Shown here: one piece after another, positions 8,864 through 56,755 of the stretch | How positions within the stretch are numbered: position 1 is the stretch's first letter | Layout: every line of letters begins with the position of its first letter | NCBI GenBank assembly: GCA_963740355.1 | Contig: CAVUDW010000002.1 | Coordinates: 2,016,001-2,080,000 of the forward strand | DNA length: 64,000 bases | Direction: 5' to 3' | Source: an uncultured Gemmatimonadaceae bacterium | GTDB lineage: Bacteria; Gemmatimonadota; Gemmatimonadetes; Gemmatimonadales; Gemmatimonadaceae | Translations under genes and position numbers: made by a program | The notes under the pieces: model-generated | What the model saw: only the letters and a program-made list of their open reading frames with translations | Told to the model about the DNA's origin: nothing | Database searches by the model: none

Positions 8864-9850
8864 TCAGGCGAGTTCTGAGGCCTGCATCCGGTTCGCGCGA
8901 CGCGTCGCGAGTTTCACTACGAGATTGTCGGCCACACCCGGCAGGTTCCACGGGCATGATGCGAGGCACGCGGCGCACCCCTGCGTCTCGTTGAAGTACG
9001 GCAGGCACTTGTCGAAGTCGACGTACCACTTCTCCTCGCCGCGTACGACCTGCTTGTCGGGACCGATGGCCTGCGGCGGGCAGCCGACGGTGCACGACTG
9101 ACACTTGGTGCAGAAATCATCGGCGCCGAAATCGTCGGGCTGGTCGGCTTCGAGTGGGACATCCGTCAGCACGCAGGCGAGCCGCAGGTTCGATCCAAGC
9201 CTGCGATTGATCAGTGAGCCGTGTTTCCCGAGTTCGCCAAGTCCGGCCGCGATGGCCGCGGGAAGCAGCAGCATCGGCATTGCGAGCGGGCCACCATGCG
9301 GCGTGGCGTCGTGCCCGCCCATCCGCAGATACGACGCCACGGCCTTCGCGACACGAATGCCACGTCCATACTGCCGGATGACTTCCGCCGCCGCGGTTTC
9401 GGCTGGCGCGGTGCTCAGCGCCCCCCAGTCATGCTGCACGCAGAGCATGATGGCCCATCGCTGCTTCACTTCGTAGCCATCGTACACCCACTGCGGCTGC
9501 ACGCGCGTGATGCCGACATCATCCGCGCCAGCATTGCGCGCTGTCTCCTTCACCAACCGCGTCCACTCGGCCGCACTGCGTTCCACGACGTCGTCCGACA
9601 GCGGTGCGACGGGTTCCTCGGTCGCGCGCATGCGCTCTTCACGCGCGACCTGCACGAAGGGCGTGGTGCGGTTGATGAACCAGAGCTGCAGCTTGCCATG
9701 CGCCGTGGCATCCGGCATGTGCCAGTAGATGGGCGACGGCTGCCTGACGTCCGACTCGCCGACACCATTGATGGTGTTCCCGGAGACGGACGGCCACAGC
9801 GCCATCTGCTCGGCACTCGGAGTCCACGGCGGTGGGCGTTTGGGCGGCAT
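8864..9850 (-). CDS. Reductive dehalogenase-like (RdhA/QueG superfamily) 2x[4Fe-4S] protein
   Basis: GADDVGI; AIAAGLGELGKHGSLI..GSNLRLACVLTD; CTKCQSCTVGCP and C..GCAACLASCPW. Start at MPPKRPP assumed. Confidence 0.75.
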   Translation of the reverse strand: MPPKRPPPWTPSAEQMALWPSVSGNTINGVGESDVRQPSPIYWHMPDATAHGKLQLWFINRTTPFVQVAREERMRATEEPVAPLSDDVVERSAAEWTRLVKETARNAGADDVGITRVQPQWVYDGYEVKQRWAIMLCVQHDWGALSTAPAETAAAEVIRQYGRGIRVAKAVASYLRMGGHDATPHGGPLAMPMLLLPAAIAAGLGELGKHGSLINRRLGSNLRLACVLTDVPLEADQPDDFGADDFCTKCQSCTVGCPPQAIGPDKQVVRGEEKWYVDFDKCLPYFNETQGCAACLASCPWNLPGVADNLVVKLATRRANRMQASELA

Positions 9851-9890
9851 GGATGAGAAGGTACGAGCGGTGCGTCCGGCTGCAAACGGG

Positions 9891-10229
9891 TCAGCCTGGG
9901 GCAGGCTCGATACCGAGTGATACGATGTCACCGTCAGCGTTGGTGGTCCAGCGCCCCCCCGCGCTGTCGGCCACGCCGCGCGCTTTCCATCCTCCGGGCA
10001 CGGGCACTGGTAGCGCTAGGAGCGCGCCCTCCGGTGAGGTGAGGAGGGCGAACTCCAGCGTTCCGCGCCCCACTACGACCACGCGACAGCGCCAGCCGCC
10101 GTTCCAGTTCCGATGGAAATCGAATTCCATGTCCACCGCACCGAGCCGCTCCTCGAACGCCAGCCGAATGAGCCTGCGCGCCTCTGGCGTCAGCCCACTC
10201 ATTTCCGTCACCTCGGCGAACTCGCTCAT
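9891..10229 (-). CDS. Hypothetical protein (112 aa)
   Basis: Protein-like composition from MSEFAEV; co-oriented with the gene downstream. Confidence 0.55.
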   Translation of the reverse strand: MSEFAEVTEMSGLTPEARRLIRLAFEERLGAVDMEFDFHRNWNGGWRCRVVVVGRGTLEFALLTSPEGALLALPVPVPGGWKARGVADSAGGRWTTNADGDIVSLGIEPAPG

Positions 10230-10269
10230 TCCTGAAGCTCGCGCGCTCACGTGCGCCTGGTAAGTCGGC

Positions 10270-10530
10270 CTTGGACGCCTTTGGCGGCATTGGTCCACAC
10301 TCCCTCACGCGGAGGCGCGGGGGACGCGGAGCCGCGGGGAACAGCAGGGGGCTGAGGATGGGACGCCTGTGGCGGCGATGGTCCACACTTCCTCACGCGG
10401 AGCCGCGGGGGACGCGGAGCCGCGGGGAACAGCAGAGGGGTTCAGGCTTGGACGCCTTTGGCGGCATTGGTCCACACTCCCTCACGCGGAGGCGCGGGGG
10501 ACGCGGAGCCGCGGGGAACAGCAGAGGGGT
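10270..10530. repeat. Three tandem 88-89 bp repeats containing the core TCACGCGGAG(G/C)CGCGGGGGACGCGGAGCCGCGGGGAAC
   Basis: GGACGCC anchors at 10273, 10361 and 10450; units 1 and 3 are nearly identical. Confidence 0.95.
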
Positions 10531-10653
10531 TGGGGTGATCGTGGAAGTCCGAATGACGGCTGTGTGACGCCGCATGCGACCATTCAATCGCAGGCAGCAA
10601 CGAAAGTCGGAAGCGACGAAGACTTGCGCATTCCACCGACCCCTCCTCAAGCA

Positions 10654-10691
10654 GTTCCCCGCGGCTCCGCGTCCCCCGCGGCTCCGCGTGA
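10654..10691. repeat. Inverted copy of the 38-bp repeat core
   Basis: GTTCCCCGCGGCTCCGCGTCCCCCGCGGCTCCGCGTGA is the exact reverse complement of 10393-10430 and has one mismatch to 10482-10519. Confidence 0.95.
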
Positions 10692-10769
10692 TCAGAAACT
10701 GGGTCTATCGCCGGCGTAGCCGTCCGATTCCACGATTCCCCAAGTCACCTTTTTCAAATGCGAGGAAGA

Positions 10770-11192
10770 ATGAGTCGCGAGCCTGATGAAATCACTGCGA
10801 TCATCATCGAAGAGGCGATCGAGCTGCATCGCCGACTTGGCCCGGGTTTGATGGAGTCGGTCTACGAGGCAGTACTGGCTAAAATGCTGCGCAAGCGGGG
10901 ACTGGAGGTGGTCCGACAGGCGCTGGTCCGGATCGAGATCGATGGCGAGATCTTCGACGAAGGTTTCCGTGCGGATCTGATCGTCGTCGATTGTGTGATC
11001 GTGGAACTCAAGTCGATCGAGCGGTTGCTCGCAGATCACAAGAAGCAGCTGCTGACGTACTTGCGGCTGGCGCACATGCCGGTCGGCCTGCTGCTCAATT
11101 TTGGCGCGCCCACAATGAAGGCCGGTTTGCGGAGGGTGGTGAACAACTACCAGCCGTCGGCCGACAGCCGACTTCGTGTGAATCAAGGCTAG
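10770..11192 (+). CDS. GxxExxY protein (PD-(D/E)XK nuclease superfamily)
   Basis: LGPGLMESVYE (GxxExxY), RADLIV..IVELKS, QLLTYL, GLLLNFG; ATG 10770 with GAGGA upstream. Confidence 0.93.
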   Translation: MSREPDEITAIIIEEAIELHRRLGPGLMESVYEAVLAKMLRKRGLEVVRQALVRIEIDGEIFDEGFRADLIVVDCVIVELKSIERLLADHKKQLLTYLRLAHMPVGLLLNFGAPTMKAGLRRVVNNYQPSADSRLRVNQG

Positions 11193-11234
11193 GACGGCGT
11201 GCCTAGGTAACCGTCGCGTGATAGCTTTTCGCAC

Positions 11235-12251
11235 ATGCCGACTCTACTGCTGACCGACAAGGACGTGGCCGAGCTGTTGCCGATGCGGGAGTGCATCGAG
11301 GTGATGGCGGGGGCGCTGCGACGGGTGACGGAGGGGGAGGCGGTGTTGCCGCTGCGGACCGTGCTGCGCCTGGCGGGGACCACGAATGCGTTTGCATCGA
11401 TGCCTGCGATCGTTGGCAGCGGGACCGACGCATCGATCGGGGCGAAGGTCATCACCGTGTTCCCCGGGAATGACGCCACGCCATACGATTCGCACATCGG
11501 CGTCGTGTTGCTGTTCGACGCGCAGTTCGGAACGCTGCTCGCGATTGCAGACGCGTCGAGCATCACCGCCATTCGCACATCGGCAGTGTCCGGCCTTGCC
11601 ACACGCCACCTCGCGCGCGAGGACGCCAGCACCCTGGCCATACTCGGCGCCGGCGTGCTCGCGTTGCCGCACATAGAAGCCGTGTGTGCCGTCCGCCCAA
11701 TCCAGACGATCCGGATCTGGAGCCGATCGGGTGGTGGGGCGGGGAGTCGTGCTTCCGTGCTGGCCGAGCGAGTGCGGGACGCCTTCGAGAGTGACGTGGT
11801 CGTGTCGACGAGTGTGGAAGATGCCGTGCGTGACGCCCATGTCGTCTGCACCATCACCTCCTCGCGCGCACCCGTGCTGGAAGGGCGCTGGCTGTTGCCG
11901 GGAACGCATGTCAATGCCGTGGGTGCGTCGATGAAGGATGCGCGTGAACTCGATACGCAGGCCATTCAGATGTCGCGACTCTTCGCCGATCGGCGTGAAT
12001 CGGTGCTCAATGAGTCTGGCGACTTTCTCATTCCACAGAGTGAAGGCGCCATCAGCGCAGATCACCTGCTGGGAGAGCTTGGAGAACTCGTCACGGGTCG
12101 GCTCGCCGGGCGCACATCGGCCGATCAGGTCACGGTTTTCAAGTCGCTCGGGCTGGCGGTCGAAGACGTTGCGGCGTTGCGGCACATCCATGCCGCCGCC
12201 ATTGCGACGGGCCGCGGCACCATGATCGACCTCGGTGGACATCGCCATTGA
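11235..12251 (+). CDS. Ornithine cyclodeaminase / mu-crystallin family protein
   Basis: GAKVITVFPGN, TAIRTSAVS, GAGVLA, HVNAVGA, FKSLGLAVEDVAA. Confidence 0.92.
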   Translation: MPTLLLTDKDVAELLPMRECIEVMAGALRRVTEGEAVLPLRTVLRLAGTTNAFASMPAIVGSGTDASIGAKVITVFPGNDATPYDSHIGVVLLFDAQFGTLLAIADASSITAIRTSAVSGLATRHLAREDASTLAILGAGVLALPHIEAVCAVRPIQTIRIWSRSGGGAGSRASVLAERVRDAFESDVVVSTSVEDAVRDAHVVCTITSSRAPVLEGRWLLPGTHVNAVGASMKDARELDTQAIQMSRLFADRRESVLNESGDFLIPQSEGAISADHLLGELGELVTGRLAGRTSADQVTVFKSLGLAVEDVAALRHIHAAAIATGRGTMIDLGGHRH

Positions 12252-19914: not shown

Positions 19915-21056
19915 CAGCGTTCGCCGATCGTGGTGATGGTCATGGTCTGGTTGTGGAGCAGTGCGTGCATGTCGGTGCCGGTGGACGGAGGCCCGATTTC
20001 GCCATTGCCGTAGAAGCCCGTCACCACGACGCCAGGCGCGAGCTGGCTGACCTCTTCGATCTCTTCTTCCGTCCTGCTGCGGAGCACCTCACGGCGACCG
20101 ATGCACGACACACAGAGCACTGCACTCGGCGCGACGCCGTTCATCCCGGCTTGGGCGCCACGTATCGCGTGTGCGGCGGCGTCGAGAATGCTGTCATTGG
20201 TCGAGCGCATGAGTCGCACGCGGAAGCCCTGCGGCATGTCGCCCGCAAAGCGGAGCGAGCCTGCCTCGTCGTCGATGCCAAGGATCGTGCGCACGACCAT
20301 CGGGCCGCCGTCGGGCGGCGTGAGCGAAAGCGGAAAGCGCAGTGCACTGCCTGGCAGTTCCGCGGCCAGATCGCCGAGATACCGACGATAGATGTCCAGC
20401 GCACGCTGGTCGTCCAGTTCGTACACCGTTGCGCCATCCGCGCGCGAGATGATCCGCTCTGGCCCGAATGGCTCCCATCCACCGCCACTCGCAGTGCCGA
20501 TCGCGAGACGCTCACCACTGAGCGTCACGGCGACGACGCGTCGCTCCATCGGCGGTCCATCAACACCAAGCCCGGTCCTGACGAACGACACGCCATCGCT
20601 TGCCAGCCCGCCAGACACGGTCACGCCCTGGCGCAGTGCGGTGTTGAATGCTGCCGTGAATGCCGCGCCGTTGAGGTAGAGGCCGTCGAGGAGCAGCAGC
20701 ACATGCCGAACGGATGGATCGACGCTGATGTCCTGCCCGAGCTCGCGGCCGAGTGTCTCGCTCGCCACCACACCAACGCCATCACGCGTGTACACCTGCA
20801 CCGACGCCGCGTCGAAGGCGAGGCCGGTCAGCACGACTTCGGCGTCGAGCAGGTCGAGTCCATCGATCTGGCCACCGGCGGTGGAGTAGACGAGCCGTGC
20901 GTTCGGCCAGCGCTCGCGGACCTCCACAAACCAGCGATCGGGTGGTGCGTCGACCGGACCGAACGCGAGCAGCAGTTGCACGTCCGCTTGTACGCCGGTG
21001 TGGGGGGCGTCAGACCACCCAGCGTCGGAGGACCAGCGGAGTGAGAAGGCACGCAT
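19914..21056 (-). CDS. FIST N/C domain sensor protein (NosP-like)
   Basis: STAGG, GGLAS, GWEPFGP, ELDDQRAL, SCIGRR, GFYGNGEI, LHNQTMTIT; stop overlaps the start of the GGDEF-EAL gene. Confidence 0.92.
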   Translation of the reverse strand: MRAFSLRWSSDAGWSDAPHTGVQADVQLLLAFGPVDAPPDRWFVEVRERWPNARLVYSTAGGQIDGLDLLDAEVVLTGLAFDAASVQVYTRDGVGVVASETLGRELGQDISVDPSVRHVLLLLDGLYLNGAAFTAAFNTALRQGVTVSGGLASDGVSFVRTGLGVDGPPMERRVVAVTLSGERLAIGTASGGGWEPFGPERIISRADGATVYELDDQRALDIYRRYLGDLAAELPGSALRFPLSLTPPDGGPMVVRTILGIDDEAGSLRFAGDMPQGFRVRLMRSTNDSILDAAAHAIRGAQAGMNGVAPSAVLCVSCIGRREVLRSRTEEEIEEVSQLAPGVVVTGFYGNGEIGPPSTGTDMHALLHNQTMTITTIGER

Positions 21057-21122
21057 TCGAGTGGGCGGGTGAGGACGACCTCAACGTTCGACGAAGTGCC
21101 GTCCGGCACCTGCTGCCTGAGA

Positions 21123-21149
21123 GGGTCGACCAGTGGGGGGTGGACTTGA
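21123..21149 (-). promoter_or_regulatory. Candidate sigma-28 (FliA) promoter for the FIST/GGDEF-EAL operon
   Basis: Minus strand TCAAG-N14-GTCGACCC resembles the TCAAG-N14-GCCGATA FliA consensus. Confidence 0.3.
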
Positions 21150-21185
21150 GATGCTAGCGTTCGAAATGCAGGACGATCGCTGGCC

Positions 21186-23609
21186 TCAGACCTCGAGAAA
21201 TTCCTCGACCAGCTGTTTGTCCCGAGCGGGAGCGGCCGCTGCCTTGGGGCGCGGTGGCCGACGGGTGGCCCCGCGCGCTGTCTCCCGACCGTTATTCGCG
21301 CCACGATCTCGTTCCTCGCGGCTGTTCCAGTCGCGCGTCTTGAAGCCCTGTGCCGCGTCGCCGAGCTTGGCGGCTTGTGCCCGCATCTCCTCGGCGCCTG
21401 ACGCGCCTTCTTCGGCGCCAGCGGCGACCGACTGCGCGAGACTGTTGAGCTCACTCATGCGACCGGTGATGTCGCGCACCTGATCTCGCTGTGACGTGAT
21501 CTCCTTCGTCATGCTGGACGCTGTTTCATCCACACGTTCGACGGCGATCGCGATCGCTGCCAGCACGCGCTGCACATCATCTCGCAGCGTCACGCCACGA
21601 TCCGCATCCTGCACGGCGGCCTCGATCATGGCGCTGGTGCTGCGCGCAGCCTCGGCGCTACGGAGCGCCAGCGCGCGGACTTCCTCGGCCACCACGGCGA
21701 AACCGCGGCCGGCGTCACCCGCCCGTGCTGCCTCGACGGCGGCGTTGAGCGCCAGCAGGTTGGTCTGGAACGCAATCTCGTCGATGGTCTTCACCACCTT
21801 GCTGGTTGCGTCGCTCGATTCCTTGATGCGCGTGATGGCATCGCCAAGGTCACTTGCCACGCGGGTGCCGTTCTGGACGTTCTCGCGTGCCGTCGCGGCC
21901 AGTGTGGTGACGTCGGCGGCGCTGCGTGCCACACGTTCGGCCATCTCCGACAGGTCCTTCGTCGCTGCATCCACGGCCTCGATCGCGCCGGCCTGCCGCT
22001 GCGAGTTGTGGGCGAGGGTCTCGCTGGTGGCGGCGATGTGCTCGGAGGCGTCGGCAACCTGATGCACCGACTGGCGCACCTGCCGCATGGCGACGGAGAG
22101 CTGCTCGGCCGCCGTGTTGACCGAATGGGCAATCGCGGAATAGTCGCCCTGGTATTCGCCAAGCATCCGCACTTCGAGGTCACGTGCGGCCATGCCTTCG
22201 AGCGCACCCTTGGCTTCGCTGAGCGGGCGCTCGATGGCGTCCAGCATGCGATTCAACTCCTGCACCAACTCCCTGAATTCCCCTTCGAACTCCGCGGGTT
22301 CGGCGCGGACGTTGAGGGTGCCGGCGACGGCGGAATCGGCCATCTGTCGGCTCGTCTTCACCAGCGAACGCATGGTTTCCTGCACCAGTGCAACGGCGAC
22401 GCCAGTGCCACGTGATGCGGTGATCATGCCGTCCAGGCTGCCCGCCATCACGCCCAGTTCGTCGTTGCTGGTGATGGCCAACAGTGGAATGTTGTCGTCG
22501 ATCGTGCCATCGAACTGACCGCGCGACAGGCGGCTGAGCACATCCTGGATCTGCACGAGCAGTTGTGACTGCACCTGCTGGGCGCGTTGTGTGACGCGCT
22601 GCGTGACGCGCAGCACGTTGCGGATGGTCTGTGTGGCAGCCGAAACCGAGACGAGCAACACCGTCAGGCTGCCGATCAGCACCACCAGCAACGTCGAGAG
22701 CGCCTTGGTCGACTCGGTCTTCGCTCGCGACGTGAGCGAGTCGGTGAGGGCCATCTCGAGTGAGCGCTGCTTGTTGATGACGGCGCTGGCGGCAGTGAAC
22801 CAACCCGTGATTGTGACAGGGATGACCGCCCCAGCCGGCACACTCTCGACGGTTGACCGGAAGGTCGCCATCGTCTTGTGCTCCGGCATGGCGTCGATCA
22901 CGCCGAGCTCGCCCAGAAAGGATTGGGCCGCGCCGCCGCGCAACTGTTCGGACGCGATCTCCTGCCCGATGACCGATGTCACCCACGAGCGCTGCATCGA
23001 TGCCGTCGGGAACGCTCCACTGGTGAGCGCCGCGTTGAGCGTGCCGCGTTCAATCGCAGACCATTCCTTGAGGTGCCCCAGCATGTCGATCTGGCGCATC
23101 GAGGCGCGCGCATCGTTCGACGTGATGCCTTCGCTGTAGGCATCGAGTGCTTCGCGCAGGGTGTTGATGTTCGCGCTGTACCGTTGCAGCGCGAGCTCGG
23201 CCGAGACCTGGCGCGAGTCGACGGCCGCACGCGTGAGTCCGACCGTATCGATCGCGCCTTCGATTGCCGCTGCGGTGGGTGCCAGCGTTGCGATCCGGGT
23301 GGTGGACATCGACGTGCGATACGCGTCACGCACGCTATCCGAGACAAGTCTCTGGGCGGCCAGTTCACTGGCGAACTTCGTGCCTCCACTCGCGACGTAG
23401 GCTGCCGACAGCCCGCGCTCCATCTGCCATTCGTGGACCAGCGCTGTCGTACTGCCGAGCAGCACCGTGATCCGCTCCAGATCTCGCCCGTCGCGCCAGC
23501 TTCGAAATTGCTCCGTGATGACGACGCTGGCGAAGGCGATCGCAATCAGCAGCGGGAGGCCGGCCGCCGCGATCAGCTTGCCGCGGAGACCGGAGAAGAA
23601 GTAGCGCAT
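21186..23609 (-). CDS. Methyl-accepting chemotaxis protein with NIT (nitrate/nitrite) sensor domain
   Basis: Two TM helices; NIT-type boxes [11 protein letters not shown] and [14 protein letters not shown]-like segments; [37 protein letters not shown]. Alternative start 23657. Confidence 0.92.
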
Positions 23610-56463: not shown

Positions 56464-56755
56464 GTGGAGGGGAGCGCACGGAGCTCACGGAGTGCTCCAG
56501 TAGCCGGCGAATTCTGATTCGCGACCAACTGAGAAGGGTTTGTTGGATGCAGAATTTCTACCGGTAATCCCTTGCTTCGTTTACAGTCGTTCTTGGCGCT
56601 GCACGGCTGGTTGCACCCGGCGCACTCCGTGAGCTCCGTGGCCTCCCCCTCACAAGTTGTTAACGTGGCGCGACGCCGATGCCGGCCACTGGCGCATTGC
56701 GTCAGCTCCGGCTCTCTCCCTCACCAGCTATTAACGGGGCGCGACGCCGATGCCG
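56464..56755. repeat. Gene-less inverted-repeat element with tandemly duplicated right arm
   Basis: CACGGAGCTCACGGAGTGC (56477-56495) has its perfect reverse complement at 56622-56640; the right arm plus flank is duplicated with 71-72 bp period (56622-56684 vs 56694-56755). Confidence 0.85.

Follow-up and report, generated by a model that had tools for sequence, protein, structure and literature searches.

REPIN/RAYT pairs are among the closest described counterparts of the system proposed here. In those pairs (PMC3116915, PMC3337134), one or two enzyme genes are accompanied by tens of intergenic, gene-less inverted doublets, repeats of its own type lie on either side of the gene, and the type of repeat follows the lineage of the enzyme. 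The same traits were found here, with flanking repeats at the second paralogue and at 90 of 109 homologues, the gene of the present locus excepted. Unlike in those systems, the enzyme is a PD-(D/E)XK protein of about 125-140 aa and not an HUH Y1 (IS200-like) transposase, and the repeats are arrays of 7-nt words placed every 8-9 nt instead of the single short palindrome with a 5' GTAG/CGTC tag. In addition, the true Y1 genes of this genome carry other repeats.

Insertion sequences and their MITEs are also comparable, with terminal inverted repeats around a short coding unit, an intergenic location, and gene-less derivatives that have the same ends and outnumber the coding units. Here, however, there is no recognised transposase family, the only gene belonging to PF13366, no target-site duplication was seen, and the gene-less interiors are unrelated to the gene. 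The cassette, of about 0.5 kb, is also smaller than the smallest insertion sequences known to us (about 0.7 kb). Enterobacterial BIMEs are mosaic REP clusters of short modules; the elements described here likewise combine short modules as a mosaic, but differ in their sequences and associated gene and, unlike for BIMEs, we know of no host factor that binds them. PD-(D/E)XK enzymes whose substrates are branched or transposon-end DNA include TnsA of Tn7, Hjc resolvases and Cas4; they share the fold and the catalytic D...ExK with the GxxExxY protein. Finally, the 23S rRNA intervening sequences with an S23p (PF05635) ORF, as in Coxiella (PMC4990558), hold an ORF of about 120-140 aa between stem-forming inverted repeats within roughly 0.4-0.6 kb. 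This identity was rejected, since the ORF found here belongs to PF13366 and the locus lies between protein-coding genes (4Fe-4S and OCD-family), with no RNA-level signature.

The function of PF13366 is listed as unknown in a table of a 2012 survey (PMC3424549). No description of the gene-hairpin pairing was found in the literature, subscription journals being outside coverage, or in Rfam; mentions of GxxExxY were incidental, and five arm sequences searched as text matched one unrelated paper in the literature. The proposed repeat-plus-nuclease system is apparently undescribed.

Tandem array, hairpin and nuclease gene

Positions refer to the window, the whole stretch of 64,000 nt that was analysed. 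The features of the locus are as follows.

10270..10531, + strand: tandem array of three left-arm modules of 88-89 bp (Tandem Repeats Finder; repeat search)
10305..10345, + strand: core 1, TCA followed by the words CGCGGAG / CGCGGGG / CGCGGAG / CGCGGGG at spacings of 8, 9 and 8 nt
10393..10433, + strand: core 2, nearest the family consensus, with 100% matches at other loci
10482..10522, + strand: core 3, left arm of the predicted hairpin
10523..10650, no strand: interior of the hairpin element, 128 nt, locus-specific and partly self-pairing in the fold
10651..10691, - strand: inverted core, right arm of the gene-less element, from its complementarity to cores 1-3 and its arm orientation
10482..10691, no strand: gene-less hairpin element, a convergent arm pair (fold; one of 27 '+-' pairs among 54 loci)
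10770..11192, + strand: GxxExxY (PDDEXK_3) nuclease ORF, 140 aa, PF13366 and TIGR04256; 144 aa if translation starts at the alternative ATG (10758)
11151..11183, + strand: what is left of the decayed 3' arm belonging to the gene, overlapping the C-terminal codons of the ORF

The array had been noted in the sequence as three tandem units of 88-89 bp. Tandem Repeats Finder recovered it at 10270-10531 (period 89, 3.0 copies, 90% matches, score 454), together with a 17-nt sub-repeat (x1.9) within each core, while the repeat search gave three 96-nt copies at spacings of 88 and 89 nt, the later two 81% and 93% identical to the first. The modules follow the order small palindrome (GGACGCCTTTGGCGGC), GGTCCACAC box, TCCC and 41-nt core, which recurs at other loci. 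A CRISPR array was rejected, since the whole 88-89 bp unit, including the stretches between the cores, repeats at 81-93% identity.

The inverted core noted after core 3 was located at 10651-10691 (41 nt), after a gap of 128 nt, and the ORF starts 66 nt (ATG 10758) or 78 nt (ATG 10770) further on. The inverted core is 98% complementary to core 2 over 41 nt and 95% to the other two cores. Read on the + strand, it ends in ...CTCCGCGTGA, the downstream-arm form on comparison with 86 enclosed cassettes; being oriented as a right arm, it therefore closes the gene-less hairpin 10482-10691. The original prediction of one hairpin of about 210 nt with inward pairing agreed with the DNA fold of 10470-10700, a single long hairpin of -87.6 kcal/mol (z = -10.35) that none of 200 shuffles equalled in stability. 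The RNA fold of 10265-10700 gave z = -7.81. No recognisable remnant of a GxxExxY gene was detected in the interior 10523-10650 by hmmsearch of six-frame translations. The stretch 10270-10691 represents one copy, without a gene, of a hairpin element that is dispersed in the genome; in this copy the left arm is tandemly triplicated. Between 9800 and 11400, neither sigma-70-like promoters nor intrinsic terminators were found. Rfam returned for the window region only plant microRNA-precursor models, on both strands and far below gathering scores (59 vs 168 bits), which are a generic artefact of long hairpins.

The assignment of the ORF to the GxxExxY family was confirmed with PF13366 (1.7e-37, 128.8 bits, cut-off 22) and TIGR04256 (7.8e-38, 129.4 bits vs a cut-off of 35, covering positions 2-116 of the 116 in the profile). 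The G-x-x-E-x-x-Y motif and the residues D73...E83-x-K85 are intact; G30, E33, Y36, D73 and K85 do not vary among 22 sequences, in which the conservation of E83 reaches at least 90%. Third codon positions account for 28 of the 33 differences listed against a relative about 92% identical, and the gene is maintained under purifying selection. The predicted structure is an alpha/beta nuclease fold (pLDDT 88.3). Structural comparison gave a best Z of 8.3, to an uncharacterised protein, with Cas4 SSO0001 at Z 7.4 and Hjc at Z 5.0-5.6, and Foldseek matches of the model had E values of 4e-4 to 5e-3. For this predicted model, the matches are generic for PD-(D/E)XK proteins and show no closer kinship than that of the superfamily. 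By sequence, the strongest match among solved structures had an E of 0.21, and PHROGs gave no match.

The module lies between a 4Fe-4S protein gene (8864-9931, - strand) and an ornithine cyclodeaminase family gene (11235-12251, + strand) and, as had been stated, no transposase was found adjoining it. A small ORF at 9891-10232 (- strand) was considered as a partner gene and rejected, since it is unique to this locus. The C-terminus of the nuclease ORF holds traces of an arm: Tandem Repeats Finder detected a period of 7 (3.1 copies) at 11151-11172, and the terminal SRLRVN is encoded by ...CTCCGCGTGAAC in intact cassettes. Downstream arms also overlap the ORF ends at other GxxExxY loci. The alignment of the window gene's own arms scores 20, which is not significant (control maximum 28). 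The window gene lies outside any arm pair; its own arms are decayed and the array is a separate neighbouring element. The proposal of a RAYT/REP-type module was supported as to the link between gene and repeats, seen in the enclosure and co-occurrence data below, but not as to the array being this gene's own.

The gap between the 4Fe-4S (Fer4) and OCD genes had neither the gene nor the words in 14 of 14 upstream regions examined from genus relatives, and in one of these relatives the two genes are only about 70 nt apart. No clean empty site was found. Contigs from four DNA runs break within the repeats and gave neither the joint nor an empty site.

Phased words in the genome and around GxxExxY genes

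The core is not unique to this locus. BLAST gave 105 matches merging into 50 loci of the genome, 47 of them wholly between genes (crude gene calls), in every relative orientation of the neighbours and also inside runs of same-strand genes. With a double-word CGCGGRG pattern, 54 loci were detected, 27 of them as '+-' pairs; they are mostly intergenic, and about half form inverted, converging pairs with a distance of 120-390 bp. In each arm, TCA precedes four copies of the 7-nt word spaced 8-9 nt, and 92 arm modules are present in the genome. The elements are mosaics of six classes of small palindromes, the GGTCCACAC box, the word array and its tandem multiplication. In a subfamily of about 355-400 bp, the interior is 78-95% identical at no fewer than 10 separate loci. 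Since the hairpin copies differ by 5-22%, there is no sign of recent movement. No direct repeat was shared outside the provisional ends of 10 aligned copies. By hmmsearch of six-frame translations, the interiors of the gene-less hairpins contained no GxxExxY remnant, which lends no support to their descent by deletion. The sole match at E<1 was the window locus, where the +150 nt of flank included in the search extend into the real gene alongside. All-against-all BLAST of the ORFs flanking the 50 loci revealed no gene family directly adjoining the elements.

The genome holds two GxxExxY genes and more than 100 hairpin loci. The second gene (C2:2081098-2081478) is enclosed by arms with the word CACGGAG (score 58), and its 39-nt arm has 95 matches, of which 57 reach both 30 nt in length and 90% identity, at 30 loci. 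There is also a third family of phased words, CGCAGAG, which occupies 29 loci and has no gene of its own in the assembly (94.5% complete). Two Y1/RAYT-like genes (PF01797) lie elsewhere, with repeats of other families on their flanks.

Whether inverted arms enclose the gene was evaluated in homologues by aligning 220 nt of upstream sequence with 220 nt of downstream sequence in reverse complement, at a threshold score of at least 29. Phased inverted arms were found at 20 of 29 loci of the same order and at 70 of 80 loci from many phyla, while none of the shifted controls reached this score (0/53 and 0/148, 0/201 together); the enrichment looked for in the flanks of homologues is thus present. 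Overall, the arms are formed by 2-5 phased 7-nt words after TCN. Among 135 distinct arms, TCN directly precedes the first word in 108 (TCA in 69) and three words are present in 85, with a spacing of 8 nt in 190 of 243 steps. The homologues most similar to the protein of the window gene (56-60% identity) bear arms with CGCGGAG/CGCGGGG words, and word types cluster on the protein tree, a quick tree of weak resolution. Genes of the clade to which the window ORF belongs are normally bounded by such an arm on either side, in a cassette of about 0.5 kb.

Gene and words also occur together across 201 genomes of the phylum. The GxxExxY gene was present in 24 of 34 genomes with the triple-word pattern vs 48 of 167 without it (odds ratio 5.95), although Fisher values overstate the significance because related genomes are not independent. 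With five or more triple-word matches, 11 of 12 genomes have the gene. Of the 10 pattern-positive genomes in which it was not detected, most contain 1-2 matches and one contains a lone tandem array.

The two arms of each cassette were compared at 67 loci. Mismatches between arms affected 59 of 1209 word positions (4.9%) vs 51 of 135 spacer positions (37.8%; Fisher 8e-26). The comparison is biased towards agreement in words, since these were defined by a family-like pattern. In 86 cassettes, G-U-compatible mismatches were 82 on the sense strand vs 86 on the antisense strand, without bias. Since words are conserved over spacers and no sense-strand G-U bias is present, recognition of the words is favoured over an RNA stem. 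In addition, Rfam searches of 20 other cassette loci returned nothing but one long-hairpin artefact, with no rRNA matches. The suggestion that the hairpin is a cognate ncRNA was thus left unsupported by the Rfam searches, the wobble counts and the freedom of the spacers to mismatch.

Alternative explanations

A domesticated, non-mobile system is the alternative that survives best, although it is unlikely. In it, the hairpins would be structural or regulatory sites of the host (nucleoid organisation, transcription, mRNA control), which the GxxExxY protein maintains or reads without transposing, as argued for RAYTs. The low gene copy number relative to the hairpins, copies that are 78-95% identical and not near-identical, and the purifying selection on the gene agree with it, and RAYTs themselves are described as single-copy and possibly domesticated (PMC5581495). 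Against it, genus relatives lack the locus in the corresponding gap, GxxExxY genes of 50-62% identity are present in unrelated phyla, and multiple transfers are noted for PF13366 in the survey table of PMC3424549. From the occurrence across phyla and these transfers, a horizontally moving selfish unit fits better than a host function.

Passive adjacency is slightly less probable still. Another agent, such as host recombination, a Y1 transposase or replication slippage, would spread the hairpins, and cassettes would share or attract arms, while the nuclease would have an unrelated role, e.g. in defence or repair. Only one of the 54 CGCGGRG loci adjoins a GxxExxY gene in this genome, which fits action in trans and fits chance adjacency too; as about 2% of genes border an element, the odds of a chance contact for one of two paralogues are estimated at roughly 1 in 25. 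The persistence of the CGCAGAG family without a gene and the pattern-positive genomes without one point in the same direction. PADLOC matches to Cas4 and to a DRT-associated PDDEXK model could be taken for a defence role, but they are weak (E about 1e-3) and reflect the shared fold. As a cause of the enclosure, however, passive adjacency is excluded by 90 of 109 enclosed loci against 0 of 201 controls. It also sits poorly with arm words that follow protein clades (within the weak resolution of the quick tree), with the match of the second paralogue's arms to a 30-locus family, and with Y1 genes that have their own, different repeats.

An RNA-level element like the 23S rRNA intervening sequences, with arms pairing in the transcript, excision by RNase III, the gene as cargo and the hairpins as processing or stability signals, is the least likely of the three: the small ORF between inverted arms in about 0.5 kb does match the Coxiella case (PMC4990558), the RNA fold is very stable and elements occur in every gene orientation, same-strand runs included, but the locus lies outside rRNA genes, spacer mismatches are uncompensated, sense G-U-compatible mismatches are not in excess, and neither an Rfam family nor an intrinsic-terminator-like site (9800-11400) was found.

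Proposed partnership and its meaning

The best explanation, to which we give a probability of about 0.55, is that the CGCGGRG hairpins and the GxxExxY nuclease form a REP/RAYT-like partnership built on a PD-(D/E)XK enzyme, whose activity and the movement of the hairpins we infer. Acting in trans on the hairpins, the nuclease would recognise the phased words in duplex DNA or in an extruded hairpin, probably with several protomers on each arm, and its cut would fall near the boundary of the arm or directly at it. Both the cassettes and the gene-less hairpins, which greatly outnumber them, may then be copied or moved by repair or replication in the host. The tasks would be divided as they are in REPIN/RAYT or IS/MITE pairs, with an enzyme of another fold.

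A wider reading is more tentative and stands somewhat below even odds. GxxExxY nucleases might be the sole enzyme of a new class of autonomous mobile cassettes, very small at about 0.5 kb, across bacterial phyla. Each lineage would read a particular 7-nt word, which recurs at intervals of 8-9 nt in the two arms, and would mobilise gene-less hairpins in trans. If so, this genome would have two enzyme-hairpin pairs, with the words CGCGGRG and CACGGAG, and an orphan CGCAGAG family.

PF13366/TIGR04256 is a large family of many phyla, for which the consistent association with phased-word inverted arms offers a testable hypothesis with defined candidate substrates. The genome is a good test bed, with two genes, two matching hairpin families that differ in their words, a further family that is an orphan, and internal controls in the form of canonical Y1/REP systems. 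If the nuclease moves or maintains the hairpins, it would be a parallel to REP/RAYT on another fold and would account for a sizeable share both of the intergenic repeats in many environmental genomes and of the contig breaks in the assemblies of these genomes.

Inverted arms around GxxExxY genes

A GxxExxY gene (TIGR04256/PF13366, a PD-(D/E)XK-fold family) was present in 26 of 41 genomes, namely the window's own and 40 relatives. The 13-nt core motif adjoins the gene at 5 of the 30 loci viewed, on both sides in two of them. An inverted-repeat search found that arms of 26-75 nt flank most of these genes; each arm consists of 8-9-nt sub-repeats and the word varies by locus (CGCGGAG, CGCGGGG, CACGGAG, CGCAGAG, CGCGAAG, CGCAAAG or CACGAAG). 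Word types group by protein clade in a quick, weakly resolved tree, where the label 'no-bracket' includes loci removed as duplicates.

Enclosure was evaluated by aligning the 220 nt upstream of each gene to the reverse complement of the 220 nt downstream, with a threshold score of 29. A wide scan using the 22-sequence alignment A1 as query and one genome per species found 595 relatives, the best 80 of which come from Verrucomicrobiota, Planctomycetota, Chloroflexota, Alpha- and Deltaproteobacteria, Cyanobacteriota, Bacteroidota, Gemmatimonadota, Acidobacteriota and others. The threshold was reached at 20 of 29 same-order loci and at 70 of the 80 distant ones, versus 0/53 and 0/148 for 800-nt-shifted controls, none of which scored above 28. 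Inverted repeats, which the original prediction proposed to look for beside homologues, are thus strongly enriched there. Of the nine same-order loci that are not enclosed, five resemble the window in having a hairpin pair immediately next to the gene, and in a sixth (L033) a tight hairpin lies immediately upstream.

Among 135 distinct arms, TCN immediately precedes the first word in 108 (TCA in 69), three words are present in 85, and 190 of 243 steps measure 8 nt. Of 86 distinct enclosed cassettes, 73 have arms that converge towards the gene and 8 have divergent arms, with 5 ties. The downstream arm frequently overlaps the ORF end, and ...CTCCGCGTGAAC encodes the conserved C-terminal SRLRVN. 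Two near-identical enclosed cassettes lie on one contig of a relative, oppositely oriented and separated by about 7 kb (L021 and L038, G012:C309:13548-13937 and 20816-21205).

Co-occurrence was studied in 201 genomes of the phylum. Three phased CGCGGRG words (R = A or G) were found in 34 and a TIGR04256 match in 72. The gene is present in 24 of the 34 word-positive genomes vs 48 of the 167 others (46/165 without two unpublished genomes, G088 and G185), with an odds ratio of 5.95 and a Fisher p-value of 7.7e-6, which overstates significance because related genomes are not independent. With at least five word matches, 11 of 12 genomes have the gene, the exception being a single tandem array.

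Anatomy of the window locus

Features of the window and, where a contig is given, of its genome G000
9891-10232, minus strand: 113-aa ORF between the 4Fe-4S gene and the array, with coding-like GC3
10270-10531: tandem array, period 89, 3.0 copies, 90% matches, score 454 (Tandem Repeats Finder)
10651-10691: inverted arm, 41 nt, complementarity to the three cores of 98%, 95% and 95%
10758-11192: GxxExxY ORF (PF13366, 1.7e-37; TIGR04256, 129.4 bits, cut-off 35)
11151-11183: period-7 remnant of the gene's own arm within the last codons of the ORF, the sole trace left (Tandem Repeats Finder)
about 56477-56640: convergent arm pair with CACGGAG words, a gene-less hairpin of the second family
C2:1530613-1530939 (L001) and C3:374781-375101 (L002): the two Y1 genes of G000 (PF01797; IS200-like, RAYT-like)

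Repeat search recovered three copies of 96 nt at spacings of 88 and 89 nt, and Tandem Repeats Finder detected a 17-nt sub-repeat within every core. As DNA, 10470-10700 folds into a single long hairpin of -87.6 kcal/mol (z -10.35), a stability matched by 0 of 200 shuffles, and 10265-10700 as RNA gives a fold z of -7.81. Repeat search, fold and profile matches confirmed the tandem units, inverted core, hairpin and GxxExxY ORF originally described. The arm closest to the nuclease gene, 10651-10691, has right-arm orientation, so it closes the hairpin 10482-10691 and opens no cassette. Since the gene's own arms give an alignment score of 20, within noise, the window locus is a gene-less hairpin with a triplicated left arm, adjoining a GxxExxY gene with decayed arms of its own.

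Despite the decayed arms, the gene is still alive, because alignment A1 shows conservation of catalytic D73, E83 and K85 and of the GxxExxY residues, the predicted protein model is confident (pLDDT 88.3) and the listed differences are mostly third-position. A public-run contig spanning 10483-11895 has 122 differences from the window, and among those listed, which are a sample only, third codon positions take 28 of the 33 in the ORF. By alignment, the alternative ATG at 10770 fits homologue starts better than that at 10758. The nearest homologues of the protein (56-60% identity) have CGCGGAG/CGCGGGG arms. A sequence search against solved chains gave no match. Foldseek with VIA-align placed an uncharacterised restriction-endonuclease-like protein at the top (Z 8.3), with Cas4 SSO0001 (Z 7.4, Foldseek E 4.4e-4) and Hjc resolvases (Z 5.0-5.6) also matched; these matches to a predicted model are superfamily-level only and support no assignment more specific than 'metal-dependent nuclease'.

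A 4Fe-4S protein gene and an ornithine cyclodeaminase family gene (OCD) lie on either side of the array and nuclease. An OCD orthologue was found in 14 of the 20 genus genomes, and neither a GxxExxY match nor a double word was found upstream in these 14 regions, the window's own apart. Within the genus the gap between the two genes varies: among the three relatives with the 4Fe-4S gene next upstream (L128, L131, L133), it is about 70 nt in one and holds an unrelated small ORF in two; in the window it is 1.3 kb with hairpin and nuclease. The relatives' gap has no GxxExxY gene or words, so the 1.3 kb is lineage-specific, but the empty-site comparison does not reveal a clean single insertion, because the unique 113-aa ORF also lies within it. 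This ORF matched nothing in Pfam, NCBIfam, PADLOC or PHROGs, and neither G000 nor any retrieved locus contains another copy.

Dispersed word families in the genome

In the 5.45-Mb, five-contig assembly of G000, where the window spans C2:2016001-2080000, the 41-nt core gave 105 BLAST hits, merged into 50 loci; the genome-wide search suggested by the original prediction therefore shows a dispersed core, not one unique to the window. About half or more of these loci are convergent pairs with partners separated by 120-390 bp, and 47 of the 50 fall entirely between crude gene calls. No gene family recurring directly beside them was found. A pattern search recovered 92 arm modules, laid out as TCA followed by CGCGGAG, CGCGGGG, CGCGGAG and CGCGGGG in steps of 8, 9 and 8 nt. 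On its outer side, each is flanked by a GGTCCACAC box and by one of some six short palindromes (e.g., window 10270-10304), such as GGCGACGCTGCGCTTTCGCC, GACGCCTTTGGCGGC and GCGCGTGCCGCGCC, which makes the elements mosaics; the palindrome may differ between an element's two ends. Outer modules also occur in tandem without a core at C2:1120355-1120480, and short tandem GGGGAACTGCA-like or GCTGTTCCCTT-like runs lie just inside the arms of several elements (e.g., C3:2140744-2140800, C3:2183150-2183260). The interior of a subfamily of about 355-400 bp is 78-95% identical at no fewer than 10 separate loci, and no target-site duplication was seen around the aligned copies. One-arm tandem multiplication ('+++-', as in the window) also occurs at other loci and in a second family.

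By tblastn, G000 has two GxxExxY genes only, the window's and C2:2081098-2081478, which lies about 1.1 kb past the window end with 42.5% identity to the former. The second gene is enclosed by CACGGAG/CACTGAG-word arms (score 58), and its 39-nt arm recurs at 30 loci, with 95 hits, of which 57 have a length of 30 nt or more and an identity of 90% or more. Its downstream arm is present twice in tandem. In a scan for 7-mers repeated at 8-9 nt, CGCGGAG (204 hits), CACGGAG (105) and CGCAGAG (84) alone exceed the coding background, with 54, 33 and 29 double-word loci, respectively. It is plausible that the CGCGGRG and CACGGAG families each have a gene. For the CGCAGAG family, in which 10 of the 29 loci are '+-' pairs (e.g., C2:369246-369606, C2:848700-849161), no matching GxxExxY gene was found in the assembly (94.5% complete); either this argues against a strict pairing of one gene with one family, or CGCAGAG is tolerated by the CGCGGRG enzyme. 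CGCAGAG and CGCGGAG words occur together in some arms.

Both Y1 genes have their own abundant short palindromes on either side (GATCAAGGGGTCAGAGATCTTGATC type and GTGCACTGTCACCGG type), which belong to repeat families other than CGCGGRG. Canonical REP/RAYT-like pairs therefore exist in G000, distinct from the hairpin repeats.

Proposed word recognition and known systems

Selection on a sense-transcript stem would favour G-T over A-C mismatches between arms. The respective counts were 82 vs 86 among 324 mismatches (3094 aligned pairs from 86 cassettes). Within cassettes, arms mismatch at 4.9% of word positions (59/1209) and 37.8% of positions in the 1-2-nt spacers (51/135) over 67 loci, a difference somewhat biased by defining words through a family-like pattern on the upstream arm. 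Lacking a G-T excess and with spacers so divergent, the alternative of a cognate ncRNA is without support; both results favour protein recognition of the repeated words, rather than selection for a perfect stem, as what would shape the arms.

Literature and Rfam searches found no description of a GxxExxY gene-hairpin pairing, and an extract of a 2012 survey lists the function of PF13366 as unknown (PMC3424549). In layout, the hairpins and GxxExxY genes resemble REPIN/RAYT and IS/MITE pairs, but they have neither the Y1 transposase and tagged single palindrome of the former nor a known transposase or visible duplication as in the latter. The cassettes are also alike in size and shape to the ORF-bearing intervening sequences of 23S rRNA, according to an extract of PMC4990558, although protein and site are different and no RNA signature was found. 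The RAYT/REP-like module originally proposed needs its anatomy corrected, the array being a separate gene-less hairpin; as a genomic association it is supported, whereas binding, cleavage and mobility in the GxxExxY-hairpin system are inferred.
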